From NCBI RefSeq assembly GCF_011045215.1, contig NZ_CP049201.1: a DNA stretch of 64,000 nt; one strand, given 5' to 3'. Position numbers and translations under genes: made by a program. Under the pieces are notes generated by a model. That model did not search any database. It was not told the origin of the DNA and saw only the letters and a list, made by a program, of their open reading frames with translations. Shown piece after piece: positions 13,183-40,880 of this stretch. The DNA is from Escherichia coli (GTDB lineage Bacteria > Pseudomonadota > Gammaproteobacteria > Enterobacterales > Enterobacteriaceae). Position 1 is the first letter of the stretch. Each line of letters opens with the position of its first letter.

Positions 13183-13267
13183 GCCGAAGTGGCGAAATCG
13201 GTAGACGCAGTTGATTCAAAATCAACCGTAGAAATACGTGCCGGTTCGAGTCCGGCCTTCGGCACCA
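13183..13267 (+). tRNA. leuX: tRNA-Leu (anticodon CAA)
   Basis: 85-nt sequence GCCGAAGTGGCGAAATCGGTAGACGC...TTCGAGTCCGGCCTTCGGCACCA with CAA anticodon loop, long variable arm and encoded CCA end. Confidence 0.93.
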
Positions 13268-21432: not shown

Positions 21433-21444
21433 AAGAAGGATAAA

Positions 21445-23052: not shown

Positions 23053-23061
23053 GGAGATTAT

Positions 23062-23460
23062 ATGGCAAGAAAGTTTTATGATAAAGAAATAAAAGCTATT
23101 GTTAAACTTATTGAAACCTGGAGTAAGCCTGATTTCACTTGGGATTCTTTATGCGTGGCTTGCAAAAAAATTTTAGGTAAAGTACCTACACGGCAAGCAT
23201 TAAGCCAGCATAGTGAGATTGTCGTTGCGTATAGGACCAGAAAAAGATCTGGTATGGTTAAACGTCAAAATACGAAGTTACCCGGTAGCCTGAGCCTTGC
23301 GGCGAAAAGAATAGAACGACTTGAAAATGATAATTCGGCACTAAAATATGAAAATAATAATTTACTGCTTATGATTCAAAGAATGCACGAAAATGCTTAC
23401 AGGCATAATATATTGGCTTCTATTCTTGAAGAAGAATTTCCACAGAGAGCAAGAAAATAA
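23062..23460 (+). CDS. Small basic protein with a predicted coiled coil, coupled to the recombinase trio
   Basis: 132-aa ORF starting 9 nt after recombinase C; the C-terminal half (AAKRIERLENDNSALKYENNNLLLMIQRMHENAY) looks coiled-coil. Confidence 0.5.
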   Translation: MARKFYDKEIKAIVKLIETWSKPDFTWDSLCVACKKILGKVPTRQALSQHSEIVVAYRTRKRSGMVKRQNTKLPGSLSLAAKRIERLENDNSALKYENNNLLLMIQRMHENAYRHNILASILEEEFPQRARK

Positions 23461-23545
23461 TATTTTGATAGGTTTTATCTATTGACAGGTGATGTTAATA
23501 TGGTATTTGTAAATATAGTCAGGAAGACAAAACTAACTTGCAAGG

Positions 23546-23983
23546 ATGCAATTTATGGACAAACAACACAATTTTCCAGTGGAAACACTGGAAGAGCAGC
23601 TTATTATTATCGTTGATAAATATATCTCAAAACGGTACCAGCCGGGCGATAAAAGTTTCTCATACCAGCTATACCTGCTTTTTGTTGGCTATCACTTAAA
23701 GTATTTCTACCCCAAAAAACTTTATACTCGCTCTAATCGCAACATAGACAACATTATGACAATGTTTAGTTCTGTATACAAATGTCTTACAAGTACTTTG
23801 TTACAGCGATTAAATAATAAGGAAGCTGTTATCAGGGAGCTAAACTCTCTCGTTAACTATATTGATAACAATCAAGAACGAGCAGAAGAAATCTTTATAG
23901 CTATCAAAACTCAATATGAGATAAAAGCAATAGAGAAAGAACTAACCCATGAAGTCGTTAGAGTAAAAAATGTTAGATTATAA
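23546..23983 (+). CDS. Hypothetical protein
   Basis: 145-aa ORF followed by a terminator hairpin. Confidence 0.45.
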   Translation: MQFMDKQHNFPVETLEEQLIIIVDKYISKRYQPGDKSFSYQLYLLFVGYHLKYFYPKKLYTRSNRNIDNIMTMFSSVYKCLTSTLLQRLNNKEAVIRELNSLVNYIDNNQERAEEIFIAIKTQYEIKAIEKELTHEVVRVKNVRL

Positions 23984-23984
23984 A

Positions 23985-24010
23985 AGCTCCCGAAAGGGAG
24001 CTTCATTTTA
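23985..24010. terminator. Putative bidirectional terminator
   Basis: Stem agctccc/gggagct with a gaaa loop, flanked by A/T runs, between convergent genes. Confidence 0.6.
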
Positions 24011-24023
24011 CTAATTTTCTTTA

Positions 24024-24287
24024 TTAATAACTTCCTACTTGCCAGCCATCATCTGATTTTATTAATTTAACTGTTCCAGCTTGCTTTGTTCCGCTCATAT
24101 CCATAATTATATTGCACTTATAGCTTTTATCAGATTCTTTTGTGCAATCTACTTTTTTTACTGAAGTCAGATAGCTTCCAGTCCATTTTCGCATAGCTTT
24201 AAAAATATCATCTTGGGAAGGCTCACTACTACATGCAGTAAGAAGAAATACGGAAATAATAACAGCAAGGACCGAAGATATTTTCAT
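24024..24287 (-). CDS. Putative lipoprotein
   Basis: 87 aa; signal peptide with lipobox LLTAC. Confidence 0.6.
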   Translation of the reverse strand: MKISSVLAVIISVFLLTACSSEPSQDDIFKAMRKWTGSYLTSVKKVDCTKESDKSYKCNIIMDMSGTKQAGTVKLIKSDDGWQVGSY

Positions 24288-24311
24288 TAGACTTAATCCT
24301 GATTAAGTATG

Positions 24312-24698
24312 TTACTGAAAAATGCCAGATTTTGTATTATTATTATCAGTAGAGAATGTCCATTTGCTGACAATTTCGCCTTTAAAATCTATTTCAAGAG
24401 TTTTGGACTGAGTCTGTGAACCACCAGTTAGTAGCCCAACTACAGGAATGAAAGTCGAGGCATTGAACTGATTGTTATACATAAAATATCTCCATTGCTC
24501 GTTGCCATCATCAAGAGTCGTTCTTGTATCTGGTTCACCTAACTTAGCGAGTAGCTCGTTCTTAGTAGTCTTGTTTTTAATGATCTTTGACTGAAGACTT
24601 TGTGCAGTTTCATTTTCAATTTGTTGGTTCCCGGATGTTGAGCAGCCAGAAATTAAAAATATTGCAATGAAAAAGGCGGTAACAATAGATTTATTCAT
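24312..24698 (-). CDS. Putative lipoprotein
   Basis: 128 aa; signal peptide with lipobox LISGC. Confidence 0.6.
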   Translation of the reverse strand: MNKSIVTAFFIAIFLISGCSTSGNQQIENETAQSLQSKIIKNKTTKNELLAKLGEPDTRTTLDDGNEQWRYFMYNNQFNASTFIPVVGLLTGGSQTQSKTLEIDFKGEIVSKWTFSTDNNNTKSGIFQ

Positions 24699-24727
24699 TC
24701 TATCTTCCTTATTATATTTGGTCAGGG

Positions 24728-25006
24728 TTAACTTTTATGTGTGAAAACGGCTCTGTGGGCAAATTTCTTGCGTAAATAAAATCTTAAAGAAATTGCTGAG
24801 GCAAAATAGATAACGACAGTTAATATAAAACTTTGACTGATAGCGAATATGAAGAAAGCAATTACTAACAGCACAATTCCTATGAGTAAAGCTAACCAGG
24901 CCGAAGGTTCACCATAATTTATTGTTGCGTGACAGCCGATACAGACACGAACTCCGAACGGACTCTCTTTGAAGCAGAACGGGCACTTAATGGTCTCTTT
25001 ACTCAT
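24728..25006 (-). CDS. Zinc-ribbon membrane protein
   Basis: 92 aa; N-terminal CPFC...CIGC four-cysteine motif followed by two hydrophobic helices. Confidence 0.55.
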   Translation of the reverse strand: MSKETIKCPFCFKESPFGVRVCIGCHATINYGEPSAWLALLIGIVLLVIAFFIFAISQSFILTVVIYFASAISLRFYLRKKFAHRAVFTHKS

Positions 25007-25259
25007 ACAAACTCCGTTTATTCAACAGGTTCCTGATACTACAAATTGTTTAAAAATCATCAGGTTCTTTTCAGGGATTCTCGATGAATAATTATCTTTA
25101 GTAAAATCACTTGTACCGATCGATGTTTGAATCATGATAGGTAAAAACTATCATAACTAGATTATCGATCTGTATTAACGATCAATAATTTCTTGACATA
25201 ATATAAATTAGTTACTGTATAGTTAAGAGTGTTTGAGAATAATCAATACAAGTAATTGT

Positions 25260-26405
25260 CTATAAACGAATTTTTATCGCCTTGTTTAAAGGTTTCATTG
25301 CGTAGATATTTGAGAAGGTCGTGTGTGTTTTGTGAAGAATGGTCTTACCAAAGCTTCTCAGAAGCTCGATGTAATGCTTTATGGAAGCAAGCCACTCTAC
25401 GAATCTGAGATGCTTTTGCCGTTGTACTGCATTTTTTTGAAGAATCTTTCCTACGATTTCGTTTCGTTTGTCTTCTCTAAGCCGTAATTCCAGTTCTGCA
25501 ATTTTTTCAACGATACTTTCCTTTCTCTCAGTGGTTTTCAACACTGTTGCAGGAGCAGGAGCAGCAGGTTGGTCTTTTGTCGATATGTCGCTTCGTAGAG
25601 CTTCTAAGTGGTCGGGGTTGTAGTTAAGCCGATTACTGAGATTTGCCCAGGAGTAGCTCTTGCCCAATTGTGAAGCTTTGAAAGCTATGCCTGTGTATTC
25701 GAAAGAGAAGCCGTTCATTTTACCGGTAGAGGCAATATTGGCCTTCCAAGATACTTCAGCTTCTTCCAGCCTCTTGATAAAAGTTAGAAGGTCCGGCTTA
25801 TCAGATAAACTTTTATCAAGTATCTGCTGCAGAGCTTCTCTTGGTGAAAGCACCCCGGTTCGTTCCGATAGCATTTTCTCATTACGGGACACTCTCTTCC
25901 GCTTCGGTTGTGCTTGCGAGGGGGGAGATGCAGTTTTGGTCACTGTCAGGCCATGAGCGATTTCGAGTTTACTGATGATCTGTGTGCTGATGAGGTTTTC
26001 GTTCCTACCCAAGTAGAGCTTCCCACCATTGAGATCTATGCGACTTGCGATAATGTGTATGTGCTGGCCATCGTCGTCATGAAGCACATAGCAACGAAGG
26101 TGAGTATCCCTGAACCCCATCCTCTTCATGTAGTCATCTGCGATAATGGACCACTGTTCATTCGTTAGTGTTTCACCGTCGGGTAAGCGAAGTGAGTTGT
26201 GCCAAACGGGTTTTGCGACATCTAGGCGAAGATGCTTGGTGCTATCGAATTCAGCGATCATTTCAACGGCTGAATCACTTAACATGTTCCCGCCAATGAC
26301 GACTGGATCGCTTTTGTGGTGTGCTCCCGATTGTAATACATAACGAACAACACCAGCGAAGCTCTTACCCCTCTTGATCTTCCGCATACCCTTCACGAGG
26401 GACAC
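25260..26405 (-). CDS. Relaxase (MobA/VirD2-type mobilisation nuclease)
   Basis: 381 aa; three-histidine motif HDDDGQHIHII typical of the relaxase/mobilisation nuclease domain; overlaps the upstream mobC-like gene. Confidence 0.75.
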   Translation of the reverse strand: MSLVKGMRKIKRGKSFAGVVRYVLQSGAHHKSDPVVIGGNMLSDSAVEMIAEFDSTKHLRLDVAKPVWHNSLRLPDGETLTNEQWSIIADDYMKRMGFRDTHLRCYVLHDDDGQHIHIIASRIDLNGGKLYLGRNENLISTQIISKLEIAHGLTVTKTASPPSQAQPKRKRVSRNEKMLSERTGVLSPREALQQILDKSLSDKPDLLTFIKRLEEAEVSWKANIASTGKMNGFSFEYTGIAFKASQLGKSYSWANLSNRLNYNPDHLEALRSDISTKDQPAAPAPATVLKTTERKESIVEKIAELELRLREDKRNEIVGKILQKNAVQRQKHLRFVEWLASIKHYIELLRSFGKTILHKTHTTFSNIYAMKPLNKAIKIRL

Positions 26406-26739
26406 TCCAAAAATCTGTTCTTAACAAGTTGTGACGAAGCTCTTCAAGTTGTCGCTTCACAGCGAAAAGCTCTGTATGAGTAAGCTGGCTATCTTTACTC
26501 TTACTGTCGATATGGAGAGCAATACGATTCAACTTTTGTGATATGTCAGACAATTTTTTCCAGGCTTCAGTATTAATTGTCGGTACTACTGGTGGCAGGT
26601 TTTGCAGAAATGACATGCGGAGCCATTCACCTTTACTTTTATTACCTCGTTTTATATTTAAAATCTGTAATTCATTGTTGTTGAGTCGAACACTTATACA
26701 ATGTATTCTAATTCTGTCATCTAATCTTAATTTAGCCAT
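26365..26739 (-). CDS. MobC-like relaxosome accessory protein
   Basis: 124 aa; KLNRIALHI resembles the MobC N-L-N-Q-I-A-R motif; 41-nt overlap with the relaxase gene. Confidence 0.65.
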   Translation of the reverse strand: MAKLRLDDRIRIHCISVRLNNNELQILNIKRGNKSKGEWLRMSFLQNLPPVVPTINTEAWKKLSDISQKLNRIALHIDSKSKDSQLTHTELFAVKRQLEELRHNLLRTDFWSVPREGYAEDQEG

Positions 26740-26885
26740 ATAAGTTCCTTTTATATGATTTAATATGATTAATGATAGTTATTATTTCCCATTAGTCAAT
26801 AGCAGAACGGTTTTGATATATGGGTTTAATGTGCTAAAAATAAATCTCTCTGAAATAAAGTATTCAAAGATTCCCTAAATTAAAA

Positions 26886-28049
26886 TTAAGGATGATCTAT
26901 TGAAACAAACTTTTGACTAAACTCCAGCCATCTTGCATTATCAACATCCTTCACAAAAGCAATCAGACCTGCGACATGATTGTAAAAGCCAATTGGAGAG
27001 TCAAATTTTTCATGTCTTGCAACTTCTGAGAGACCAAATTTTTTTATTGAGTAAAGGTGGCGTTCAATACGTTTATAAGTTTGTTTAGATAATCGAGGGA
27101 CATTGCCATCAACAAGTAATCCTAAAACTATTTTTTTTGAACCAGGTCCAGCTACTCTTATTTTGCTTACGTTTTCTTTGAAATGGTGCTTACGAATGAT
27201 GCTGATAATGTTATTTTGTATTTTTCCAACCGAAACACCGTCGGGTAGAGTACCACCGCAGGATAATGTTATATCATCAGCATATCGAGTATAAGTGAAG
27301 CCATATTTATTAGCATATTCAGATAGAGAAATATCTAACTTTACAGTGGCTAAATTACTAAGCATTGGGCTACTCGGTGCCCCTTGAGGTAGCACTCCTA
27401 ACGGCCATGGTTCTGATATGTCCCAAAAAAGGCTCTTCTCTTTATTTTGTCCGTAAAGCTTATATTCCTTAGTTGAGTGCTTAGGAACAGAAATTAGAGA
27501 TTGTAAATGTTGTGGTAAACGTATAGTTGTGCATAGCCTTGATAGTTCAAATGCTATTAATGGCCGATATCCAGCATTTTTAAAAACCATATAAACATCA
27601 GATTCATTTATTGAATAAAAGAAATCGGAAATGTCGAATTGGAAGAGCCATTTAGCACCACAATGCTGTTCTGCACATTTTCTGATGCCACCATTAGGAT
27701 GGAAAGCAAAAGAAGTATTATGGGGAACTAACTTTTTTAATATTTCACTATTGATGAAATGCTGTACTTTAAATATCTCGCCAGTTACAGCATGAATATG
27801 GCGTCTTCCACCTGAACGTTTTTTTATAGCAAACATGCGATAATTTGCTGATTCACGGCGGCGTGATACAGTGGATCGTAGCAAGCGATAATCAACACCA
27901 GTAATTTTTGAAAGATGGCGTAATGTAAAAATTACAGGGAGATTATTTTTCTTCAGATTACTTGCATAATTTCTTAAGTTTAGAGCCTGTGTCTTCCCTA
28001 AGGATGACTCTGCATTTTGATAAAGTTGGTGTGCTGACCAGATTTCCAT
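26886..28049 (-). CDS. Reverse transcriptase, retron-type or defence-associated
   Basis: 387 aa; motifs FDISDFFYSI, LPQGAPSSP, catalytic YADD, and a thumb-like KIRVAGPGSKKIVLGLLV; no maturase, endonuclease or other extra domain. Confidence 0.85.
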   Translation of the reverse strand: MEIWSAHQLYQNAESSLGKTQALNLRNYASNLKKNNLPVIFTLRHLSKITGVDYRLLRSTVSRRRESANYRMFAIKKRSGGRRHIHAVTGEIFKVQHFINSEILKKLVPHNTSFAFHPNGGIRKCAEQHCGAKWLFQFDISDFFYSINESDVYMVFKNAGYRPLIAFELSRLCTTIRLPQHLQSLISVPKHSTKEYKLYGQNKEKSLFWDISEPWPLGVLPQGAPSSPMLSNLATVKLDISLSEYANKYGFTYTRYADDITLSCGGTLPDGVSVGKIQNNIISIIRKHHFKENVSKIRVAGPGSKKIVLGLLVDGNVPRLSKQTYKRIERHLYSIKKFGLSEVARHEKFDSPIGFYNHVAGLIAFVKDVDNARWLEFSQKFVSIDHP

Positions 28050-28237
28050 TCACCTATCCTTTGAGCCCAGGGGGCCATCAGTGTCATACATTTTCCGAGT
28101 CCTCGATGGCCGTTAATGTATGACATTGAAGGGCGGCGTAGCCGCCTTTGCGTCAGATCTTTCCAGAGATGTTTCTCCAACATCCCCATCCGTTGTAACA
28201 AAAGCCACAACAGATTCTGTCAAACAAGCGGTGAACT
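28050..28237 (-). ncRNA. Candidate structured non-coding RNA upstream of the reverse transcriptase (possible retron msr-msd)
   Basis: 188-bp intergenic region with an 11-bp perfect stem (28082-28092 with 28115-28125), an interleaved 7-bp stem (28073-28079 with 28105-28111) and a GGCGGC-gta-GCCGCC hairpin (28132-28146). Confidence 0.35.
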
Positions 28238-29458
28238 TCACTCATCATTGTTTAACGGCTGAACGGAGTGCTGATCAGCACACCAAGACTCTGGAATGTA
28301 AAGACCAAAATCCCATACACTATCGTTTTTAACATGCCTAGAATTTACAAGTATGTCAAGTCCGAATTTAGATAATCGTTTTTGAGTTGTCAATAGTCCT
28401 AATGTCTCTGCATATATGAGTAGTTTTTCTACATACGAACAATCAACATTCAAACGTAAGGCAATGCTTTTGTTATCTCTGACACCTCTTTTTATAAGTT
28501 TTAGTAAATTTATAATTTCGGGAGATAAAGATGAATGGGGGGAAGTGTTATGCTTTGTTCCATTTTCTAACAAGGCAAGCAGCCATCCTGGAATTGCTCT
28601 ATCAGGCATTAGTCCTTGCCATTTTTTATTAGAAAACCATAGTATTCCAGGAAGGTTATTAGGGACGCTATGATAAAAAATTATATTAGATAAAACATTA
28701 CCATAGCCAAGACGAGCCCATGGAGGAATTTTGGTTTGATTTTTACAAAGATTGATTATTTCATTATACTGCTCACCCCACCGAGTTTCTAACCAATTTT
28801 CATTATATACGATGTTACTTATGAAATTGATTTTTTCAGATTTTCTATATTTTCTTACTCCATGGTCTGAGCCGCGAATAGTATTGATTATTCTATTTTC
28901 AGAACCTAGTGTTCTGGCGAAAGAAATTAAAGTTAATCTTACTAGTCCTAAACTCCACCAACTTAAAAAGGTAGGGTTATCGAGCATGGCATTAATAAAT
29001 CCGGATACTCTATCACCACTACCAATCGAATCATCAATAAGTAAAAAATCGTTGACTTTAGATTTTTTCAGATCATTGAGTGATGGATGATCTAAAAACA
29101 TAGTTTTATTAGACCGCACAAGGTTTGAAATAATTGAATATACTAAGTCTTCGCTACCTTGCGAATGACCTGGTCTATTAACAACATCACCATTAAGGTC
29201 CCATAATACTTGTTTGTCTGGATCTAATTTGCGAACTGAATAAAGGGCATAATTTTTATTTTTTGGTAAATCAGAAATGCTCTTTTGAAGCCATATGGTA
29301 AACTCATCTCTACTTACAAAAGTTAACTTGCTCAAGATGTTTTTTGCAATCGCTTTTTGGCTGCTATTAAATTGCATAAGCCATTGAGCTATTTCCTGAG
29401 AGGATTCAATTTTTTCTACTGAAAGTATTTTAAATTTAGGTTTGTCTCTTGTTTTCAT
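28238..29458 (-). CDS. Phosphoribosyltransferase-like protein with a C-terminal helix-turn-helix region (candidate effector)
   Basis: 406 aa; PRPP-binding-type motif FLLIDDSIGSGDRVSG in the N-terminal half; HTH-like KSIALRLNVDCSYVEKLLIYAETLGLL near the C-terminus. Confidence 0.65.
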   Translation of the reverse strand: MKTRDKPKFKILSVEKIESSQEIAQWLMQFNSSQKAIAKNILSKLTFVSRDEFTIWLQKSISDLPKNKNYALYSVRKLDPDKQVLWDLNGDVVNRPGHSQGSEDLVYSIISNLVRSNKTMFLDHPSLNDLKKSKVNDFLLIDDSIGSGDRVSGFINAMLDNPTFLSWWSLGLVRLTLISFARTLGSENRIINTIRGSDHGVRKYRKSEKINFISNIVYNENWLETRWGEQYNEIINLCKNQTKIPPWARLGYGNVLSNIIFYHSVPNNLPGILWFSNKKWQGLMPDRAIPGWLLALLENGTKHNTSPHSSLSPEIINLLKLIKRGVRDNKSIALRLNVDCSYVEKLLIYAETLGLLTTQKRLSKFGLDILVNSRHVKNDSVWDFGLYIPESWCADQHSVQPLNNDE

Positions 29459-29693
29459 TTTTTTTAACCACTGTCAGGGCAATTGTTATTTCATAACATA
29501 AAAAGTAATGATGGTAAAGGTTTTGTTGTATCATTAACCTTCTTTATAACTGAGTAGACTAAGTTTAGTACTCTTATACGAAGCTAAATGAGCTAAATAT
29601 TAAATACTAAAATGTAATGGCGGATATTTTTCAACCGAAGGGCGAAAAACAAGGGAACGCAAAGAAGCGGAGCTTCGATGAGTTAGCCCTTGC

Positions 29694-30278
29694 TTATTCA
29701 TATGATTTGTATTTCTTTTCATCTACTAAATTTATTATGGACGATGAGGTTTTATATATCAACTTTACATTGTGTAAAGATATATTGTGTTTGCTAATAA
29801 AATATAAAAGATCCAATAGCATCTGTTCTTGCCGTTCTTGTGGAAACTCTAATTTTACGATTGGAGTAAATTCAACAATAAAACCACTATTCAACAGTAG
29901 TTTTATGTAGCTAAATGAGTTTGGCGTAACTGTTTTGATTTTTATTATTTTATTAGTAATTAGATGCTTATGGTTTATAATAATGTGAGGGTTGAGCAGT
30001 GCCATATCATATGACATGAATGTTAAACCATGACTATCTATTATGTTCAAGTCGATACCAAGTTGTATAAACATATCGATTATTGCTTTGCTATGTATCC
30101 AGTTATAAAATAAAGGTGTCCTTCCATAGTTATCTAAATGATTTAGGTCGGCTCCTGCAGCTAAAAGAGATGTTGTAAGTAAATAGTCATTAGAATAAAA
30201 TAATGGTGTACGACCACAATTATCCTTTAAGTTTATTAAACCATTGTCTATGAATATATTAGATAAATTATTGTGCAT
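29694..30278 (-). CDS. Ankyrin-repeat protein
   Basis: Two GRTPLFY...L..GADLN ankyrin units; start placed at the Met preceded by a perfect AAAGGAGGT ribosome-binding site. Confidence 0.65.
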   Translation of the reverse strand: MHNNLSNIFIDNGLINLKDNCGRTPLFYSNDYLLTTSLLAAGADLNHLDNYGRTPLFYNWIHSKAIIDMFIQLGIDLNIIDSHGLTFMSYDMALLNPHIIINHKHLITNKIIKIKTVTPNSFSYIKLLLNSGFIVEFTPIVKLEFPQERQEQMLLDLLYFISKHNISLHNVKLIYKTSSSIINLVDEKKYKSYE

Positions 30279-30339
30279 TTTACCTCCTTTTATCATTATG
30301 TATATTAAAAAAAGGAGGTTGTCAATATTTAGAGGTTAG

Positions 30340-30588
30340 TTAACCACCAAATGTTTTTTTCTTAGGTTGTGGGGGCTCTGCATTAAGTATGATAGTTTTA
30401 ATATTTGCATTTATTTGATTGATATTATCAGTCAATATATTAATAACTGATAATGCTTCTACAGGTGTGCTAAATGATGATTCTAAAAACACGCCTGAGC
30501 CTTTCAAAAATATATGGTAAGTGAGTATGCCATTTTCTTCATTTTCATATATATCATAAAGTTCATTTACTGTTTCGTACAATTTCAT
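30340..30588 (-). CDS. Hypothetical protein
   Basis: 82-aa ORF in the same minus-strand gene string. Confidence 0.4.
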   Translation of the reverse strand: MKLYETVNELYDIYENEENGILTYHIFLKGSGVFLESSFSTPVEALSVINILTDNINQINANIKTIILNAEPPQPKKKTFGG

Positions 30589-30643
30589 TATTATACTCCT
30601 TGATAATGATGGTTTATTTCAATGGGCTCGCGATATCACTACC

Positions 30644-31519
30644 TTATAAATGATCTCCAATGTGAGCAATAGCGATTTGTGCCGGTCTATCAGGAATTCT
30701 ATTAAAGAAGCCAAAGTATATTCTATTGTAGTAATAAGTTCCTTTTCGATTAGTATTGTCCATGTATTCAAGTTTATAATGGAATTCACAATTCACGTCT
30801 TTATAGATACAATCACCCACTTTAAAATCACGTTTTAATTCCCCTATGGCTCGTTTATTTTTGCCTCCACCTTCTGGTGTTACAAGATAAGGTAACGATG
30901 AATTCATAATTCTAATGTTATGTTGTGAGTCATTAGGTATAATTGTATAGTTATTAACAAAATAAAGAAATTCAGTGATGCTTTTCAAAAAATTTTCATA
31001 TCCACCTTCAATTTTCCTAATAAAATTAAAGGTTTGTGGTGGGTTATCCAAAAAAATGACATTCTTGAAAATGTTTTTAATATTGTCAGCATATTCATCA
31101 CAATCCGATGGGAATTCATCAAGGATTTTCTTAGAAAGATCAATTATTTCACTTTCACTAGAAACTGTATTATCCTTTTTTAAAGGTATGTCTGGAGATT
31201 GATAGGCACAGAGTTTTCTTTCGGCAAGTATCGATGGGGATGTATTGATGATATTTAGAAGTTCATTGCAGCCTATTTCATCCAATAAACTAATTTGGCC
31301 TATTTTATAATACTCATTAACAAGGCCACCGTAATCAGGGTTTGTTGAAAATAATTTAGTGACAAATTTTCCATCAAATTCATTGGAGCGAAGAAACTTT
31401 ATAAAATCTGAATCCACTCTCTCTACAAGTGCTTTAAGATCTTTAATCTGGTTAAAAATCTTAATTTGTTCTTCTTCAAGAGAAAAACTATCTATGAACA
31501 AGCAAACACCTGCTTTCAT
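30644..31519 (-). CDS. Hypothetical protein (third gene of the DUF262-ATPase operon)
   Basis: 291-aa ORF starting 9 nt after the ATPase stop; no confident motif. Confidence 0.55.
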   Translation of the reverse strand: MKAGVCLFIDSFSLEEEQIKIFNQIKDLKALVERVDSDFIKFLRSNEFDGKFVTKLFSTNPDYGGLVNEYYKIGQISLLDEIGCNELLNIINTSPSILAERKLCAYQSPDIPLKKDNTVSSESEIIDLSKKILDEFPSDCDEYADNIKNIFKNVIFLDNPPQTFNFIRKIEGGYENFLKSITEFLYFVNNYTIIPNDSQHNIRIMNSSLPYLVTPEGGGKNKRAIGELKRDFKVGDCIYKDVNCEFHYKLEYMDNTNRKGTYYYNRIYFGFFNRIPDRPAQIAIAHIGDHL

Positions 31520-31528
31520 GAAATCCCC

Positions 31529-32680
31529 TTAATTTTCAATATCAGGAGTATTAAATGATCCTGTCATAATGGTATACATATCAATTGATTGCTGGTCAAA
31601 GAATCCTTTCGGCCAACTAGAAAGTTTTCCATCTTTGCCAATAGATATCTTTTCTGCAGTAGATTCATTATTCTCATGTGAAATATAAAATAACGAAATT
31701 AGCTCAGGTGAAAAGTCAGGAGATGTTCTTGCTACGACACGGATTCCGTTGAGAAGGTGATCGCTATGAGTTTCTATGAATACCTGTACTCCCGCTTGAG
31801 CAGTGTAAGCTATTAATCTACCCATATAGCTTTGTCCTCTAGGGTGCAAATGGGCTTCCGGGTTTTCTAAAACTACTAATTCGCCCGGTTTTGCTAAAAG
31901 TAATGCTGAAACAATACTCAAAGCATAGCTATAACCAAAACCAATGTTTTTGGGTTTAGTTTGTTTTCCTGACTCAGCCTGTATTGTGTTATAAGCAATG
32001 TTTGCACTAACTTCCAATTTTGGCTGTATTTTATAATTTGGGGATATTTCATCCATCCATGCCTGTATATTATTCGCAACCCTTACATTATTATAATTAT
32101 GATGTATTCTTGGGTCGTCTTTATTTGGATTACCATCTTTCAGTATTAGTCTATCTTGCCTATTCATTATATTGTCTAATACTTCGATGACATATTCACC
32201 TTTTTTCCCCAACCAATCGCTATGAAAATTGTGTTGTGATAAAGAAATATTGTCTCTTGGACCAATACGTTCGGCTTCAATATATTGAAAATTACTTGCA
32301 TGTATAAAGTTTTTAATTGTTTTAATGCTATCCATACCTGAAATACATGGAAGTTCATTACGAAGATTTGCTGAGTCCTCTTGTGTAACCCCCCAACTGA
32401 CTTCACATTCTTTAACTGAAAGAGTGATTTTCAGTTGATCATCATCTGAAATAAAGTCATTAATAATATCGTCAATACGACCAATGTTTATCAGTTCACC
32501 ATTTAACTTTATATCATTTTTACTACTAAAATCAGACTGTAACACCATACCTATGGCTTGCATTACTGTACTCTTACCGACAGAGTTATTACCACAAAAT
32601 ACATTTAGACCTGACAAATCAAAAGATTGCTCTTTGTATGATTTAAAATTTTTGAGTTTTATCGATTTAATAGGGAGCAT
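31529..32680 (-). CDS. ABC-type (AAA_21-like) ATPase
   Basis: Walker A GNNSVGKST near the N-terminus; LENPEAHLHP Walker B/D-loop region and ETHSDHLL H-loop near the C-terminus; ATG sits 3 nt after the upstream gene's stop, with a GAGGG ribosome-binding site. Confidence 0.75.
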   Translation of the reverse strand: MLPIKSIKLKNFKSYKEQSFDLSGLNVFCGNNSVGKSTVMQAIGMVLQSDFSSKNDIKLNGELINIGRIDDIINDFISDDDQLKITLSVKECEVSWGVTQEDSANLRNELPCISGMDSIKTIKNFIHASNFQYIEAERIGPRDNISLSQHNFHSDWLGKKGEYVIEVLDNIMNRQDRLILKDGNPNKDDPRIHHNYNNVRVANNIQAWMDEISPNYKIQPKLEVSANIAYNTIQAESGKQTKPKNIGFGYSYALSIVSALLLAKPGELVVLENPEAHLHPRGQSYMGRLIAYTAQAGVQVFIETHSDHLLNGIRVVARTSPDFSPELISLFYISHENNESTAEKISIGKDGKLSSWPKGFFDQQSIDMYTIMTGSFNTPDIEN

Positions 32681-32682
32681 TA

Positions 32683-34599
32683 TCAATTACCCTCATTAGC
32701 ATTAACAATCTTAATGCCTGTGCTTTGTTCAAGAATTTTCGCAAAAGAATTGAATCTATATAATATAGTTATTTTCTTTCCTGTTGAGGTAGAGATAGAG
32801 TCCTTAAACCCTCGCTCTGCTTCAATGTAAGTCTGTGAATCCCATGTGGCATATTCTTTTGAATTGCTATCAATAGCAGAATAAAGGGTATCAACCAATT
32901 TATCAGAATTTTTCAGCAATAACTCTTCTTGTTCCTCAGTAACATAATAGAAATAGTAAATTATCACTTCATAAAGTTGCTTACTTATAGGTGATGTATT
33001 AGAGCCAATCTCTTTTATGAAAGCTAAATCACCGAAAACATCATAGGCGAGGTTTAAAGCCCTCAAATATTTTCTTTCTATTTGAAGATACTCGTTGCAT
33101 TCATTCGAAATGTACGCACTTCCTAAATCTATTTCTTTTTCGTTTAATAAGTTTAATTTATATAGATTTAAGTTTTCCATGGCTTTTGATAAAAACTTAT
33201 CATAGGAATTAAAATTATAATTTTTAAAGCCAATATTTATAAATGCAAGAGCAGCAAGGCAAAGCTCCATATCCTTTTGTCTATCAGGCTTAACCTTACC
33301 ATGCGTTGCTTGTTTGAATTCGTTTTTGGATGCCAGATACCGTAAAAACTTAACACTTGAACCTTGATTCAGGGCCGAACGAATTTCTTGATCACTTAAC
33401 TTAACACCATATGTATTGATACGGTGGAATAATTCAACTATGAGATCAGTGCTATCTTTATTCATTTCTATAAAGTAAGCCGTGATTTCATATTCTCTTA
33501 TGGCTCTTTGTTCAGTGCGAGTAAGCTCACCAAACTCTTTACCATTTAAATCCTCAAGGATATCAAGTTTAGAAAGTTTAAATTCTCCACTCATAAAATC
33601 ATAAATTGTTGTGATCCGTTGTAAACCATCAACAACGACCCACTTATCTTCTGCGATTCGATTACCAAAATAAAATACAGGAAGTGGGAGTTTTAAGAGA
33701 ATAGACTCGATTAATTTAGACTTCTTCTCATTATTCCAAATACGATCTTTTCTTTGGAAGTCAGGTTGTAGTTCAATATCACCAAAATGAACCCGATCAA
33801 AAATGAGAGATAAAACCGGAGTCTTGGAGGTAATTCTTGCAACACCAAGTTTAGCTTGTAGAGTTTTTAATTCCAAGTTCAACTGTGATGATGTTGTATC
33901 ATTTTCACCCTCATCTACTCCATAAGTATTGGGTGACTCTATAAGTTCTTCTACAGTAGTATTATTACTAATTTTTAATGTTGGCACCTCTATATTATAA
34001 TCAAGAGTCACAACTGAGTTAGCCATATCTGCGGAAAGCTCTTTAAATCTATTAAGAGTAACCTCAACCATTTTTGAAGCAATTTCAGATGGGAATTTCT
34101 TCAAAACTATTTGATAAGCATCATCAAGGCTTTGAACTAATTCAACCTGCTGTTCATAAATTTTCCCAAGATTCAAATTGAGAAAATTATCAATTTTTTT
34201 TCTTAAAACCCTAAATTCAGAGCCTTGAACTTCTGATAATGTCGCTGCTTCATGGACATTATGACTACGCAATAACAGGTGTTTTTTGTTTTCATACTTG
34301 AAATGTTGAATATAGGGTAAGTTAGCAAATATTGTTTCTGGTTGGTTCCTGCTCGAAGAACTACCGTAAAGAACCTGCTCTACATTACAAAAACCTCTAA
34401 TATTTAAATTGCTGTAAATCGATTCAAGCTCTGATAATGAACGTGTTTTAGATTCAGAATTAGAAGAGACTTTATATTTACCGTTTTCACGATCAATGCT
34501 TATAATACATAGTGGAGGCGTAGAAGGATTAATTGGCTGTAGCTGTTTGCCAAAAAGAAGATTTTCGATGTCGTTTAGCACTTGTTCAAAGTTAAGCAT
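32683..34599 (-). CDS. DUF262 (ParB-like nuclease fold) domain protein
   Basis: 638 aa; central QPDFQRKDRIWNNEK...VVDGLQRITTI matches the DUF262 IPxFQR and DGQQR signatures. Confidence 0.7.
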   Translation of the reverse strand: MLNFEQVLNDIENLLFGKQLQPINPSTPPLCIISIDRENGKYKVSSNSESKTRSLSELESIYSNLNIRGFCNVEQVLYGSSSSRNQPETIFANLPYIQHFKYENKKHLLLRSHNVHEAATLSEVQGSEFRVLRKKIDNFLNLNLGKIYEQQVELVQSLDDAYQIVLKKFPSEIASKMVEVTLNRFKELSADMANSVVTLDYNIEVPTLKISNNTTVEELIESPNTYGVDEGENDTTSSQLNLELKTLQAKLGVARITSKTPVLSLIFDRVHFGDIELQPDFQRKDRIWNNEKKSKLIESILLKLPLPVFYFGNRIAEDKWVVVDGLQRITTIYDFMSGEFKLSKLDILEDLNGKEFGELTRTEQRAIREYEITAYFIEMNKDSTDLIVELFHRINTYGVKLSDQEIRSALNQGSSVKFLRYLASKNEFKQATHGKVKPDRQKDMELCLAALAFINIGFKNYNFNSYDKFLSKAMENLNLYKLNLLNEKEIDLGSAYISNECNEYLQIERKYLRALNLAYDVFGDLAFIKEIGSNTSPISKQLYEVIIYYFYYVTEEQEELLLKNSDKLVDTLYSAIDSNSKEYATWDSQTYIEAERGFKDSISTSTGKKITILYRFNSFAKILEQSTGIKIVNANEGN

Positions 34600-34799
34600 T
34601 AGTGCTTCCTAAATCCATGTTAGAATTGAAAACCATCCTGTAGGATACCATCATTTGGGTATTGGTTCAATTTTTATCTTTACTTCAATAAAAAATTACG
34701 TTATGCGTTTAAATGACTATGTTGCGTGATGGTATTTATGATGGTATTGATTATCTTGTATTAAGAAAATGACATATAAACCAATGAGGTAAGTGCGAT

Positions 34800-34822
34800 G
34801 TTCGAGTCCGGCCTTCGCACCA
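34800..34822 (+). repeat. Direct repeat of the leuX 3' end (attR-like island boundary)
   Basis: gttcgagtccggccttcgcacca matches tRNA positions 13244-13267 with one missing G. Confidence 0.8.
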
Positions 34823-35499
34823 CACCGTATGCAAATCGAGTCGCTCAAGAGCGGCTTTTTTTGTGTCTGAAATCACCCATATCCGTGCAGTATATAGGCC
34901 TGCCAGAAAAGCAGTTCAGTATTATTCATTTTGTAGTCGATGGTCCCAAGTTTGCTCTGGCTGGAAGCTGCATCGTCCACATTACGTGGGCAGGGTGGTT
35001 TCGCTATGCTATTTGAACGTTTTGACCATGTGGCTCAGGTAGCTAATATCAAAAGACGTCATTTTGTCTCCACGCCCACCTTGGTGAATATTCAATAAAT
35101 AGTTTCGGTCGAGAGCAGTTATGTAGGGCTAGCAGACGAGATGCGCAGACATCTTGTTGAAGACAATTTTACTGACCACCTGAGAACGCTATTTTACCGA
35201 ATAATATTTATTATCTTGGCGAATAATGATGATTACCTGTGTAACTATGGTTTTATGCTGATGGGACCGGCAGTACAATTTCTGTAGTGTACTCGCAATT
35301 TCAGATCTCTGGCGTTTATTCTGGTGCAAAGGAGGTATGTGATGAAAACTTTGCTACCATGCCATTAAATGCGACCAATATCGGATTATACATCAGTTGC
35401 TTGTTGTAGATTTCATTGGTTATAAAAATGCAAGGTGTAAAAGATGAAATTTATAATTATTAGTTAAGTGGCTAGTTTTATAGTAATTTAGACAATAGG

Positions 35500-36051
35500 A
35501 TGTATGGAAAAATGGGAAAAGTTTATGATACCACTAGAATTAGTAATCTTGCTAACGACCCGAAACAGTTTTGTTCTTTTTTTTGTGAGTACATAAAAAG
35601 AGATGATATTAGTATAGATATCGCCTTGGATGTGCTGAGAATATCTTCCATCTATTATAATAGATTTTCAGTTCAGACTGAAGTTGAGTATAACAATACA
35701 TTCAAAAAATGTATTAATGAGCTAGTAAACTCATTTCCTGATAACATTGAACTAATCTCTGAGTTCGAGAGTCAATGTAAAATTATGCATGATATAAATA
35801 ATTCTTTCTTTGCGGCTACAAAATGTGCTGGTATTTGGCGTAAAAATACAAAAAAATCACATGCATTAATACTTAATCTCATCATGTTTTGTGAGATGTT
35901 TTTATCATCATTATCATCCTTGGTTGTGGTCAATGATCCTAAAAAAATGAAGAGGATTTTTCCATTATTTATCGTTTCTAAAATATTAATATTCATGCTG
36001 AACCTGATATCGAATATTTTCGAGTTATCGATAGGGCATTTGATGAGGTAG
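35500..36051 (+). CDS. Hypothetical protein
   Basis: 183-aa AT-rich ORF with a hydrophobic C-terminus. Confidence 0.45.
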   Translation: MYGKMGKVYDTTRISNLANDPKQFCSFFCEYIKRDDISIDIALDVLRISSIYYNRFSVQTEVEYNNTFKKCINELVNSFPDNIELISEFESQCKIMHDINNSFFAATKCAGIWRKNTKKSHALILNLIMFCEMFLSSLSSLVVVNDPKKMKRIFPLFIVSKILIFMLNLISNIFELSIGHLMR

Positions 36052-36098
36052 CCAATTACACCGGAAGAATATTTTCTTATTTACGGACTCATGGGCCA

Positions 36099-37547
36099 TT
36101 GAAACTAACTTCTTGTGTGAATAAACAAACCTTGCTTTCAATGGGAGGGTACCTTAATGAGTGGAATGTTTTTGACTCATTAAGCAGAGTAAGAGACTTT
36201 TTCAGACTAAGTAGTGCAGTATTTACAAAATTGGATAATAACATTTACTCTCTTGAGGTTGATAGTTTTTGTTTATACCGAGATTATGAGATTGCAAGAA
36301 ATAGACTAATGATGAGAGCGTCACATCTATATAGCGAAGTTCATGAATTTAGTAACAAACATTTTCATCTAAATAGTTGGGTAAAGGATCATATGCCATC
36401 TTACTTAAATTCTGATGGCGTTTTTAGCTCATTTCATCTAAGCGAGTTGGAAAATATGTCTCCTGATGACCTTCATGAAGAATATGGGAATATATCATTA
36501 TTTAATTGGGTGCACGCTTATCAATGTTTAGTCGAGTTATCTAAAGAAGAAATGAGAAAAAGATTTTCATCGACAAAACCTATACCCCTACAGTTGGATC
36601 GCTGGCTGATCATAAAAAGCCGTGAGAGTTGGTTATCATTCTTTCAACGTAAGGGGATTGCAGCAGATGCAGCAAAAAAACTGATAGATTATTTTACCTT
36701 CAATTCAAAATCACATGATCTTAATGATTGCCCATTTATTCCCTGTATGGACGGTTTATGCTTAATGCCTGCATTAATAGCAAATAGCTCAGTGACTCGC
36801 TCTCTAATGTCATTATTTGGTTCCAAAAAAATTTCTCAAGCAAGTAAAGGGCGATTTCATGAGCAACAATTTATAAAACAAGTTCGTGATGCGGGGATTA
36901 AAGCTTCTCCAATTGATGCTCATGCTAATTATCAGTGCGATTGCGTGATTCTCCTGGATGATTGTTTGATTTTTACAGAACTAAAATCAAATGGTCAACC
37001 AATATATTATGGTAAGTACTATCAGCAAGTGTGTAACATCGTTGGAGATAGCTCATTAATACATGATCATAATAATAAATTTATGCGTTCTTATTTTCAA
37101 CAAATAAATCGAATTTCTGAACATTATCTTAATCATCTTGATGTGATCATTAAAGAATTCGAACTACCATCAACATGGCAACCCAAAGGTGTGTATAAGC
37201 TTATTGTTACTACAACTATGCTCGGTGGAAAATATCATGTGGATGATACATATGTAGCGGACAAATATGCATTATCTAGTTTTTTTCAACGAATACCTGG
37301 AGTGATATATCAAACAAATGAAAATGGAAAAATGGCGAAAAATATCATTGATGGGTTTGAGTGTTGCGAAGGGGAAATCACTATCGATAAGTTTATAGAT
37401 TATCTTTCCTCTTTGCCCAGTATTAATGCTGTACGTAAAAATATAAAAAAATTAACTTATAGTGTTCGATTTAATGAAAAATTAGTCCATCACCCTTATT
37501 ATGATTCTTGGGCTTTTGGTCCATATATTCGTAAGGGAAATGATTAG
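36099..37547 (+). CDS. Hypothetical protein, possible PD-(D/E)xK-like nuclease
   Basis: 482-aa AT-rich ORF; CDCVILLDDCLIFTELKS resembles a D...ExK nuclease core, weak evidence. Confidence 0.45.
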   Translation: MKLTSCVNKQTLLSMGGYLNEWNVFDSLSRVRDFFRLSSAVFTKLDNNIYSLEVDSFCLYRDYEIARNRLMMRASHLYSEVHEFSNKHFHLNSWVKDHMPSYLNSDGVFSSFHLSELENMSPDDLHEEYGNISLFNWVHAYQCLVELSKEEMRKRFSSTKPIPLQLDRWLIIKSRESWLSFFQRKGIAADAAKKLIDYFTFNSKSHDLNDCPFIPCMDGLCLMPALIANSSVTRSLMSLFGSKKISQASKGRFHEQQFIKQVRDAGIKASPIDAHANYQCDCVILLDDCLIFTELKSNGQPIYYGKYYQQVCNIVGDSSLIHDHNNKFMRSYFQQINRISEHYLNHLDVIIKEFELPSTWQPKGVYKLIVTTTMLGGKYHVDDTYVADKYALSSFFQRIPGVIYQTNENGKMAKNIIDGFECCEGEITIDKFIDYLSSLPSINAVRKNIKKLTYSVRFNEKLVHHPYYDSWAFGPYIRKGND

Positions 37548-38168
37548 AGCAATTTATTATATAGTCCATGTTATTCACTGATTATATTATTGATAAAATA
37601 ATCAGTGAATAACTCTAATTTTTTAATGTTGGGGTTTAGCCTGAAATTGAAATTGGTACTACGGAACGGTATGATCATATCGCATCAAAATATCAAGGTA
37701 GTGATGATTTTCTACGCAACGATCCAGAAGCGTGGATTTTATCATCACCATAAGCAATGGCAGCGACAACACCATCAATTTCTATATCAAAGGTGGTGAA
37801 ATGAATTAGAAAATTGTTTATTTAATCCATTAGCGATAAGTTTTATTGTTATTTAGCCGAGATATATTCCATTGAAAAAAGTAAATTGGCACTGATATTA
37901 TATCAAATGGGAATAATCCTTTTGTAAATAAGCTGAGGAATGTGTTAATTCATATCCAGCGCCTTATAAACCGCATCAACCGGTTATGAGTAAAAACTTA
38001 CCTGAAACTTGGTAAACAACTCTGCCGGAACTGTTGGAATATCCATAGCCCAGGATATCGGTAACAGAACTCGTTTTGCGCCGCTATCGAAGGCGAGTTG
38101 TAAACTAGCGGCAAGATCCTGCACTGATTATGTCAGCAATATTGAACATACTGCGATAGTTATCAACC

Positions 38169-39098
38169 TCACCCCCTAAAAACCTCATTCCGATGCCACT
38201 CCACAAACCCCTCATAAGGGTAATTTTTACGCACCTGCGGCAACGCAATAGTTTTCCCGTCAAAATCCCAGAATAATCTCTCAACGATCCCTCCGCCGTT
38301 TACCGCATCTGATACCAGTACCCGCATATTTTCGTCCAGGCCAATCGATCCTTTATCAAAGGCTTTATGGTGAATTGCGCAAAGCGCCAGGCCATTAGGA
38401 ATTTCACAAGGACCGCCGTGCTGTTTCCATTTTATATGCGCCGCTTCCAGCGCGACGGTGGTGTCGTCGTGGCGCATATTAAAGCCACATATCGCGCACT
38501 GGTAGTTATAAGCGCGTAATACATTTTTGCGAAATAACGGGTCGCGCTGTTTACGGATTTGCTGGAGATCAAAACCCAGCTCGTCAGCAATTTCTTCCTG
38601 AATACTCTCGGTGAAGTGCGCTTCGAGTATCTGTTGCGCCAGAGTATTGATGAGTTTTTTATTGCCTGTTACCAGGGCGTAGTGCTGTTCATCGAAACCG
38701 CCTGCAACGTGGTATTCGTTCAGTTCCTTCACTGGCGGTTGTCGGCTGCTACCTGCTGTTGAGCAAAGCTCGGCATTGTGTAATTGCCAGAATCCGTCGC
38801 CTTGTAATCGCCAGAACGGCATATCAGGTCGGTACTGTGAACGCTGTGGCCCAAAACGTTCCAGTAAATTGTGCAGAGGTTCGTAGATTTCCGATCCATA
38901 ATCGAAAAGGCGCGGATGCCCATTCAGGTATCCCGCTAATACGTATAGCAGTAACAATGGTTTATGCGGCGCGCGCTGTTCACCCTTGTGCCAGATTTTT
39001 ATATTGGCAATTGCCTGCTGTAGCGATTTACTGGAAGCCATTGATATCCCTGGCAGTGAAATAATTGCGATCATGCTCGCAAATTTTCTGCTGTTCAA
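38169..39098 (-). CDS. HNH endonuclease-domain protein
   Basis: 309 aa; C-terminal YQCAICGF...AAHIKW...ALCAIHH HNH motif; N-terminal domain of about 200 aa unassigned. Confidence 0.7.
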   Translation of the reverse strand: MNSRKFASMIAIISLPGISMASSKSLQQAIANIKIWHKGEQRAPHKPLLLLYVLAGYLNGHPRLFDYGSEIYEPLHNLLERFGPQRSQYRPDMPFWRLQGDGFWQLHNAELCSTAGSSRQPPVKELNEYHVAGGFDEQHYALVTGNKKLINTLAQQILEAHFTESIQEEIADELGFDLQQIRKQRDPLFRKNVLRAYNYQCAICGFNMRHDDTTVALEAAHIKWKQHGGPCEIPNGLALCAIHHKAFDKGSIGLDENMRVLVSDAVNGGGIVERLFWDFDGKTIALPQVRKNYPYEGFVEWHRNEVFRG

Positions 39099-39177: not shown

Positions 39178-39828
39178 ATGAATAAACTCCCCGATCATCT
39201 TCCTCGGCGGTATATCATCAAAGCTATTCATTTATGGGATGCGGGAGAAACTCATCAGTTCCAGCCTGCACGGTTGTATGAGATTGAATATCATGGCCGA
39301 CGTTACCCCTCGAAGGCGATTGCTGGCATCGCAGCGACATTGATGACGGGGACGCAATTTACCCCTGCGGATTTCACCGGCGGAATAAAATCTAAATGCG
39401 TCAAGCTACTTATAGATCAGGGATTTCATATTCATCAGGATAAAGCCGCTGCGGCTCCCATAGCCGATGTTCTGTTCCCGGATGAGTTGCCGTCGCAGGG
39501 GACCTACGTTGAAGGTGCGGCGATAAAGGTGACGGTAAACCGCTATGAACGAGATAAAAAAGCTCGCGAGAAAGCAGTCGAACATCACGGATGCCAGTGC
39601 AACGTATGCGGCGTTGATCTGGTGAAGATCTATGGCGATATCGCTGAGGGTTTTATCCATATGCATCACCTGGTGCCGCTTTCAGCCATTAAAGAGGATT
39701 ACCAGCTGGATCCAGTTAATGATTTACTTCCTGTGTGCCCTAATTGCCATGCGATGTTGCACCGACGCAAACCACCGTTTACGCCGGAGGAGTTAAAAGC
39801 GCTGATGGATGCGAATAAATCAAATTAA
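39178..39828 (+). CDS. HNH endonuclease-domain protein
   Basis: 216 aa; CQCNVCG...HMHHLVPLS...CPNCHAMLH HNH motif; N-terminal domain of about 130 aa unassigned. Confidence 0.7.
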   Translation: MNKLPDHLPRRYIIKAIHLWDAGETHQFQPARLYEIEYHGRRYPSKAIAGIAATLMTGTQFTPADFTGGIKSKCVKLLIDQGFHIHQDKAAAAPIADVLFPDELPSQGTYVEGAAIKVTVNRYERDKKAREKAVEHHGCQCNVCGVDLVKIYGDIAEGFIHMHHLVPLSAIKEDYQLDPVNDLLPVCPNCHAMLHRRKPPFTPEELKALMDANKSN

Positions 39829-39835
39829 TGAACGC

Positions 39836-40816
39836 TCACCTTTCGCGCCAAAACTGCAAAATTGCTTCTACAAACTTGTCAGAAATAATCCCCCGACGGG
39901 CTGCCGCGCTGAAATGACTGCTTCGCAGTGCCGTCGTCCAGTTCTCCGGTGACCGGTACGCTGAACCGTAATATCCCGTGCTTAAATCGTCCGGATCTTC
40001 ATCAGGCGCGTTCGTCAGTCCTCTTTCACCTTGTTGCTGGAAGTCGACGAAAATAATATTGGCTAAAACATTATTTTGATAATTGCCATAAATAGCTTCA
40101 TACGCATGAGGGAAATTTTCTTTCCAGTACCAGGTGGTATCGCCGCAAAACCACGGCGCATCAGTAATATTATTAAGCTGAGAATGGTATTGTTTTAGAT
40201 CCCTACGAAAGGCTTCAACCATATGATTAAAGTGTTGAGGGTGTGACGCGTAGTCACTGGTCATTAAGTCAAATTCGCCTTGCATCCAGCATACGCCGAG
40301 GAATTTGTTCTGCGGATTTTTTGCCAGTGCGGCTCGCGTTCTGCTGACTAAATCCTGGTACAGCGGAGTATCCGTTCCCCAACGACAAGCATCATGGCTG
40401 GCTCCGTGCCGTTCTGAATATGTCCCCTCGCTGCCAGCGGTAAAAGCCGATCCGCCACGGCAACACGGAACGATGAGAACCCCTGCGTTATCAGGAATAA
40501 AGGGCAGTAATTTCCGTGCAATATGCAGTGCCTGGCCAACGGTGCCGTACTGTGTTTGATGATTCGTTGCCAGAGGATGGTGATAACCCTGCATATCCTG
40601 AACATCGTGTGGGCAGTGAGTCAGTGGAATAATGTCGTTAAAGTGACATGACGGGCCTCCGGGATGCGTATGCGCAAATCTCGCTAATTGTTTAATTCTG
40701 GGATGAGGCGCATCTTCCCTGTCCGGTAATGGCAGTCCTTCGCCATACGCCATAGCATTAGACTGACCAGCAACGGTAAGAACAAAGTAATAATCAGGCG
40801 ATATTATTGCGTTCAT
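39836..40816 (-). CDS. nanS: 9-O-acetyl-N-acetylneuraminate esterase
   Basis: 326 aa from the internal Met; SGNH-hydrolase GQSN motif; matches K-12 NanS/YjhS. Confidence 0.9.
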   Translation of the reverse strand: MNAIISPDYYFVLTVAGQSNAMAYGEGLPLPDREDAPHPRIKQLARFAHTHPGGPSCHFNDIIPLTHCPHDVQDMQGYHHPLATNHQTQYGTVGQALHIARKLLPFIPDNAGVLIVPCCRGGSAFTAGSEGTYSERHGASHDACRWGTDTPLYQDLVSRTRAALAKNPQNKFLGVCWMQGEFDLMTSDYASHPQHFNHMVEAFRRDLKQYHSQLNNITDAPWFCGDTTWYWKENFPHAYEAIYGNYQNNVLANIIFVDFQQQGERGLTNAPDEDPDDLSTGYYGSAYRSPENWTTALRSSHFSAAARRGIISDKFVEAILQFWRER

Positions 40817-40880
40817 ATAAATTTCGCGTAATTGAAATGACAAATTGATAGCAGGGCCCCTTTACTGGGGCCCTGAAGCG

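Follow-up and report, generated by a model that had tools for sequence, protein, structure and literature searches.

Type 1 BREX systems include BrxL, a Lon-related AAA+ protein (TIGR02653; structures 8EMC, 8EMH and 8EIL), whose last ~89 residues align with a remnant in the window, i.e. the whole stretch of 64,000 nucleotides of Escherichia coli DNA analyzed here (NZ_CP049201.1). Compared with E. coli BrxL, the consensus of this remnant has 95% protein identity over the final 59 residues and 90-92% nucleotide identity. What separates the two is the state of the gene: the remnant keeps ~70 of 694 codons, contains two stops and a 19-codon deletion, and lacks an upstream pglZ; it has to be classed as a pseudogene fragment rather than as BrxL. 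A described fragment of the same kind is the engineered 'brxL 3' remnant of Salmonella StySA, whose 5' part was removed and which measures 707-807 nt (PMC9009780, Zaworski et al. 2022). Both are 3' fragments of brxL left after loss of the 5' part; the StySA 'brxL possesses the whole Lon_C-like domain and a strong promoter, whereas the remnant in the window is ~210 nt long, internally deleted and interrupted by stops (PMC9009780).

The leuX-anchored locus of E. coli has been described as defence-island hotspot #37 (PMC10121019, Hochhauser et al. 2023; PMC12707154). It is one of only two hotspots with BREX and is favoured by Wadjet, Zorya and AbiE (PMC10121019; PMC12707154). The window covers the same interval (leuX ... 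nanS/fim), in which related genomes show BREX, AbiE, Wadjet, Zorya, McrBC and type I restriction-modification systems; the hotspot papers catalogue intact systems, whereas the window holds the scar of a deleted one (PMC10121019; PMC12707154).

In the window, the tRNA-Leu(CAA) gene leuX is located at 13183-13267, and an exact 18-nt repeat of its 3' end at 34800-34817. Together they bound an integrated island of ~21.5 kb that is AT-rich throughout; the relic lies outside it, in the older, fixed (non-mobile) part of the hotspot. The island has an ORF of the size of a P4-type integrase (13457-14707) and is unlike every complete E. coli genome searched, matches starting only at ~34777-34800. At its right end (32683-34599, minus strand), a 638-aa protein with a GmrSD_N (DUF262) domain matches the PADLOC model NsnA (E 2e-115) and is likely the product of a defence gene.

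Homology of a short open reading frame to BrxL

The ORF listing contains a minus-strand ORF of 46 aa at 37984..38124, which starts with GTG and reads MQDLAASLQLAFDSGAKRVLLPISWAMDIPTVPAELFTKFQVSFYS before a TAA. The 46 codons (VQDLAASLQ...FYS; open frame 37987-38124) are not preceded by any Shine-Dalgarno-like sequence ahead of the GTG when the sequence is read directly. The first-pass annotation had pointed to an ORF-like minus-strand segment without start context at about 38010-38160. The segment and its lack of a start context are confirmed by this frame; its limits are slightly shifted, to 37987-38124 for the open frame and to 37945-38158 for the homologous block. The GC content is 0.43 at 37945-38159, 0.33-0.34 in the DNA on the left and 0.48 in the HNH genes on the right.

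Size alone is uninformative for an ORF of this kind, and the case for a coding ancestry over chance is made by the homology to BrxL. In a tblastn search, residues 606-694 of the 694-residue BrxL of strain E2855 align to window positions 38157-37948 (E 1.4e-26). The remnant matches positions 621-679 of 680 in the PADLOC BrxL model (E 1.3e-18) and positions 615-675 of 675 in NCBIfam TIGR02653 (E 7.4e-25); in the latter case, its 87 bits lie below the whole-protein cut-off of 628 because the remnant is a fragment. Searched alone against Pfam, the remnant gives no match, being too short. At the nucleotide level, the region 37850-38250 matches annotated brxL genes at 83-92% identity (megablast, 5426 complete E. 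coli genomes), and in other genomes RefSeq labels the fragment 'peptidase' or 'hypothetical protein', incomplete and missing the N-terminus. That the frame arose by chance in intergenic DNA, without any coding ancestor, would fit the abundance of short ORFs of similar size (80 ORFs of at least 30 aa occur within 8 kb), but the E values obtained with BrxL models and proteins (1e-18 to 1e-26), together with the nucleotide homology to annotated brxL genes, reduce the probability of this reading to almost nothing.

According to these comparisons, the short ORF belongs to what is left, in decayed form, of the 3' end of brxL, the gene that closes a BREX type 1 anti-phage operon; this strain has most probably lost the operon. 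The brxL 3' remnant, a pseudogene on the minus strand, occupies 37945..38158 and corresponds to BrxL residues ~606-694 of 694. The first-pass annotation's reading of a 3' fragment of a gene, which it would have abandoned had no protein matched the translation, has thus found its parent protein in BrxL. Intact BrxL of E2855 carries three Pfam domains (BrxL_N, BrxL_ATPase and Lon_C). The remnant covers just the last part of the Lon-like domain; the bulk of this domain is missing, as are the ATPase and N-terminal domains. It therefore resembles the BrxL family in sequence and lacks the full-length architecture of BrxL_N, AAA+ ATPase and Lon_C-like domains; nor is there an uninterrupted frame with a start codon, as two in-frame TAA codons, a 57-nt deletion and the absence of a native start attest.

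Deletion junction and intact arrangement in related strains

The remnant abuts a conserved anchor gene. This gene (38169..39041, minus strand) encodes an intact phosphorothioated-DNA-binding HNH restriction endonuclease; its assignment to this family is based on an NF045808 score of 438 bits, above the cut-off of 180, and on an HNH domain (Pfam HNH_2, E 5.8e-10), and the protein is 98% identical to that of E2855; RefSeq uses this name as well. Both lie on the same strand, and the fragment sits downstream (3') of this first HNH gene, not upstream of the HNH genes, where the first-pass annotation had placed it. Beside the same endonuclease, other genomes have McrBC, arranged in two ways, Wadjet, in a genome that also has Zorya further along, or BREX together with AbiE.

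Farther from the remnant, a second HNH endonuclease gene (39178-39828, plus strand, 216 aa) is intact in the window; in E2855, FWSEC0010, strain 165 and others, only 105 nt of its 3' end are left after a 571-nt deletion. The type IV restriction model PDLC03662 finds a weak match in the N-terminal part of the 216-aa protein and also matches the phosphorothioate endonuclease, though at other model positions. Likewise, the sialate O-acetylesterase gene nanS (39836-40843, minus strand) is of full length in the window; many of the related genomes retrieved (L004-L008, L011) have it annotated as a truncated pseudogene.

Strains E2855 and FWSEC0010 present the intact layout: PLD-like/other - brxL-pglZ-pglX-brxC-brxB-brxA - 332-aa gene - phosphorothioate endonuclease - HNH remnant - nanS-nanM-nanC. 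The intact interval lies on the leuX side of the same endonuclease-nanS flank, so that the remnant takes the syntenic position of the intact operon, while the operon brxA-brxB-brxC-pglX-pglZ-brxL itself is absent from the window. The BREX region of E2855 (20296-34953) has no blastn match anywhere in the window, and PglZ and BrxA give no tblastn matches there.

The truncated 5' end of the remnant, at 38153-38158, is fused to DNA 10-16 nt past the stop codon of the endonuclease gene. A comparison of flanks places the deletion junction at the microhomology hexamer TATCGC (38153..38158, minus strand), which is common to the brxL side and to the downstream flank of the endonuclease gene. The endonuclease-side flank in strain CM2 (L009) reads GATAACTATCGCGTCCC, the brxL side in the L002 allele GCGCTTATCGCTTTATG, and the window GATAACTATCGCAGTATG, with the junction itself as GATAAC-TATCGC-AGTATG. 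In both E2855 and FWSEC0010, the breakpoint motifs are ~14.56 kb apart. The homology to the endonuclease flank ends at 38153-38160, depending on the genome compared. A site-specific recombination site just past the endonuclease stop was considered and rejected, since the boundaries vary (38153, 38159, 38160, 38166) and no repeat or att-like sequence is present. As read from these alignments, the junction suggests a simple deletion at a microhomology of 6 nt, with both sides in the same orientation.

From this comparison we infer the following order of events. An ancestor would have carried, between the leuX tRNA island and nanS-nanM-nanC, a BREX type 1 operon in the order PLD-like gene, brxL, pglZ, pglX, brxC, brxB and brxA (all on the minus strand), followed by a 332-aa nuclease-like gene, the phosphorothioate-DNA restriction endonuclease gene, the second HNH gene and nanS. 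One illegitimate-recombination deletion of ~14.5 kb would then have joined the TATCGC in brxL (codon ~605) to the TATCGC 11-16 nt past the endonuclease stop, with the loss of five and a half BREX genes together with the 332-aa gene. The remainder would be the ~500-bp block 37662-38158, consisting of the last ~70 brxL codons, the native spacer and codons 1-62 of the PLD-like gene. We regard it as highly probable that this block is a non-functional fossil of a BREX type 1 operon lost by a deletion of ~14.5 kb.

The 332-aa gene (L006 33856-34852; L009 7907-8905; L011 31743-32741) matches PADLOC PDC-S11 (E 9e-113), has a NucS_C/Cas4-like nuclease region and usually lies between brxA (or the Wadjet gene jetD) and the phosphorothioate-DNA endonuclease. 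Judged by its place in the intact interval, it was presumably removed from the window by the BREX deletion.

The parent operon and the exact microhomology are deduced from related alleles, because the 5426 complete E. coli genomes yielded no intact brxL that exceeds ~92% nucleotide identity with the remnant; the microhomology is thus read from present-day alleles, which differ from the true parent. Two scans with exact or degenerate DNA patterns detected no match to the remnant's allele in 100,044 species-representative genomes. When the 59-aa consensus was searched against a protein database, all matches were remnant ORFs or other short brxL fragments, and no closer full-length parent appeared.

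The AT-rich side of the remnant block

On its left side, the remnant continues into sequence that belongs to the intact brxL neighbourhood. The native brxL stop codon, a TAA at 37945..37947 (minus strand), is identified by alignment with brxL of E2855. It is followed by the retained native spacer between brxL and the next gene (37847..37944, minus strand), which falls within the E2855 alignment and also aligns with L002. The nucleotide alignment of window 37662-38124 with E2855 (L006 19812-20295) has 84% identity, and the homology to E2855 stops at 37661/37662. Beyond the spacer, a 5' remnant of a PLD-like (DrmC-like) gene occupies 37662..37846 on the minus strand; it corresponds to residues 1-62 of 449, is interrupted by two frameshifts and is detected by tblastn in three frames with a combined E of 2e-15. 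Its parent in E2855 belongs to Pfam PLDc_2 and is DrmC-like according to PADLOC and NCBIfam. The loss of the rest of the PLD-like gene, on the AT-rich side, would be due to a separate event.

To the left, the relic block borders on an AT-rich hypothetical gene of 678 aa (35500..37547, plus strand, GC ~0.33), frameshifted near 35982. It falls into no Pfam or NCBIfam family, and PADLOC gives no more than a marginal match. The gene is WP_000416998 in other genomes and directly follows leuX in strain ETEC6335. A PD-(D/E)XK-like motif (DCVILLDDCLIFTELK) was spotted by eye; because of this motif, it may be an uncharacterised nuclease or defence gene. Just after it, a hairpin with near-perfect 21-nt arms and a subsequent T-run (37570-37613; RNA fold z = -3.97) is probably its terminator, which a consensus terminator scan missed because the stem is AT-rich.

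The first-pass annotation attributed the truncation to an insertion of the neighbouring AT-rich DNA. Such an insertion into the gene would account for the sharp GC drop just left of the remnant, and the 678-aa gene does abut the truncated PLD-like 5' fragment at 37661/37662. Against it, the natural stop of brxL and ~280 nt of native downstream sequence are present on precisely that side, whereas the missing 5' part of brxL faces the endonuclease gene, whose GC content is normal. Furthermore, tblastn over the whole window finds no rest of the brxL 5' part beyond the AT-rich DNA. The comparison with intact genomes, in which ~14.5 kb is seen to be missing at the endonuclease-side junction, decides for a deletion rather than an insertion. 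An intact brxL in an unrelated island adjoins 100 nt of a homologue of the 678-aa gene (L002 15754-15851); hence, a neighbourhood of this type did not inactivate brxL, and it probably predates the BREX loss. With the 5' end lost on the other side, we hold truncation by inserted AT-rich DNA to be very improbable and keep to the deletion.

Decay, possible function and distribution of the scar

The lesions within the remnant fall into shared and private ones. Upstream of the GTG, the homology goes on (AVCSILLT*SVQ in the window, ALCSILLAKPVQ in the intact protein), across an in-frame TAA at 38128..38130 (LLT*SVQ; minus strand) that is also found in the remnants L001, L004 and L005; in the rare variant P0001 this codon is CAA (Q). 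A second TAA (37984..37986, minus strand), which ends the 46-codon ORF, is a nonsense codon private to the window, the corresponding codon being GAA in three other remnants and GAC in intact brxL. Past this TAA, 12 more homologous codons (PVDAVYKALDMN) lead up to the native brxL stop.

Pairwise alignment with brxL of E2855 reveals, in addition, an in-frame deletion of 57 nt (19 codons; EQMVVLGSMTLGGVINPVQ lost) at 38116..38126 (minus strand), common to all four remnant copies examined. In the intact gene, two copies of an 11-nt direct repeat, CCGGTGCAGGA, bracket the 57-nt stretch, and they are perfect in the L002 allele. As far as the repeats tell, the deletion bears the signature of slippage between them.

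Compared with intact alleles, the remnant consensus has 10-13 differences in 180 nt, 9-12 of them at third codon positions. Because the differences are mainly at third positions, most of the divergence would predate inactivation, and the parent was apparently a diverged but functional brxL allele. The window copy departs from the remnant consensus at 4 nt (two first, one second and one third codon position), and three of these private changes alter an amino acid or create a stop, one being synonymous. Decay after inactivation looks unconstrained by this count. After the loss of the operon, the block would have acquired the 57-nt slippage deletion and one shared stop, to which this strain would have added the second stop and two further amino-acid changes.

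As for function, there is most likely none, as we infer from these lesions. An alternative is that the remnant is retained as an expressed small protein of 59-75 aa, corresponding to the last Lon-like subdomain, which is co-transcribed with the endonuclease gene and acts in a regulatory or dominant-negative manner. The 59-codon frame is open in the three other genomes examined and in many database entries, and the remnant ORF is called as a gene, with one cluster on more than 1000 contigs. In variant P0001, a GTG that overlaps the endonuclease stop opens a frame of 75 codons, and a longer 3' brxL fragment (~700-800 nt) perturbed global transcription when overexpressed in Salmonella (PMC9009780). 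These points are set against the two in-frame stops of the window copy and its ratio of three non-synonymous private changes to one synonymous, the existence of dozens of amino-acid variants (93-97% identity), a GTG without Shine-Dalgarno sequence, the loss of 19 core residues and of everything upstream of residue 606, and the treatment of the remnant as a pseudogene by RefSeq. On balance, we find a retained small protein very unlikely.

Since most other copies keep the 59-codon frame open, some residual expression may occur. In a more specific version, to which we assign a still smaller likelihood, the BrxL tail would be kept open in most of the ~350 genomes and translated from the transcript of the phosphorothioate restriction enzyme as a Lon_C-subdomain peptide with an activity of its own. 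Were this so, the peptide might interfere with incoming BREX systems or with host transcription; owing to the two stops, it would already be dead in the window copy.

Retention as a carrier of a terminator was also considered and rejected, as no terminator-like site is detected by scanning 37400-38400 and the only strong hairpin, that at 37570-37613, lies outside the relic. Downstream of the brxL stop, the RNA folds no more stably than shuffled sequences do (z = -0.75). A 10-12-nt match between the hairpin arm and 38122-38133 was judged to be due to chance in AT-rich DNA.

The scar, to return to the non-functional relic, is present in ~6% of complete E. coli genomes (about 340-360 of 5426): in a megablast search of these 5426 genomes, 339 cover at least 80% of a junction-spanning query at 95-99% identity, and the remnant occurs in 360 records at 95-99% identity. 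E. coli also has further brxL 3' remnants of independent origin. In strain 504211 (L003 16116-18289), a brxL without its 5' end is fused directly to a fimC fragment, an independent loss of BREX in which the deletion removed the rest of the BREX genes, the endonuclease gene, the nan genes and half of the fim operon. In E. coli clone D i2 (L010), BREX, the 332-aa gene and a truncated endonuclease gene directly adjoin the leuX integrase, on the other side of leuX than in E2855 and FWSEC0010, which suggests an inversion or rearrangement of the hotspot.

The remnant is an ordinary pseudogene scar, already known in kind – a RefSeq partial pseudogene in a well-described defence hotspot – and carries little weight on its own. 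For annotation, it means that labels such as 'hypothetical protein', 'peptidase' and 'ATP-dependent Lon protease' should give way to 'brxL pseudogene fragment'. Because it is common to ~6% of complete E. coli genomes, the scar could serve as a phylogenetic marker for the loss of BREX. It provides a worked example of how the turnover of defence systems leaves datable scars: the lineage of this strain would once have possessed a BREX system in the leuX hotspot, which a single microhomology-mediated deletion removed, while the adjacent phosphorothioate-dependent restriction enzyme was kept.
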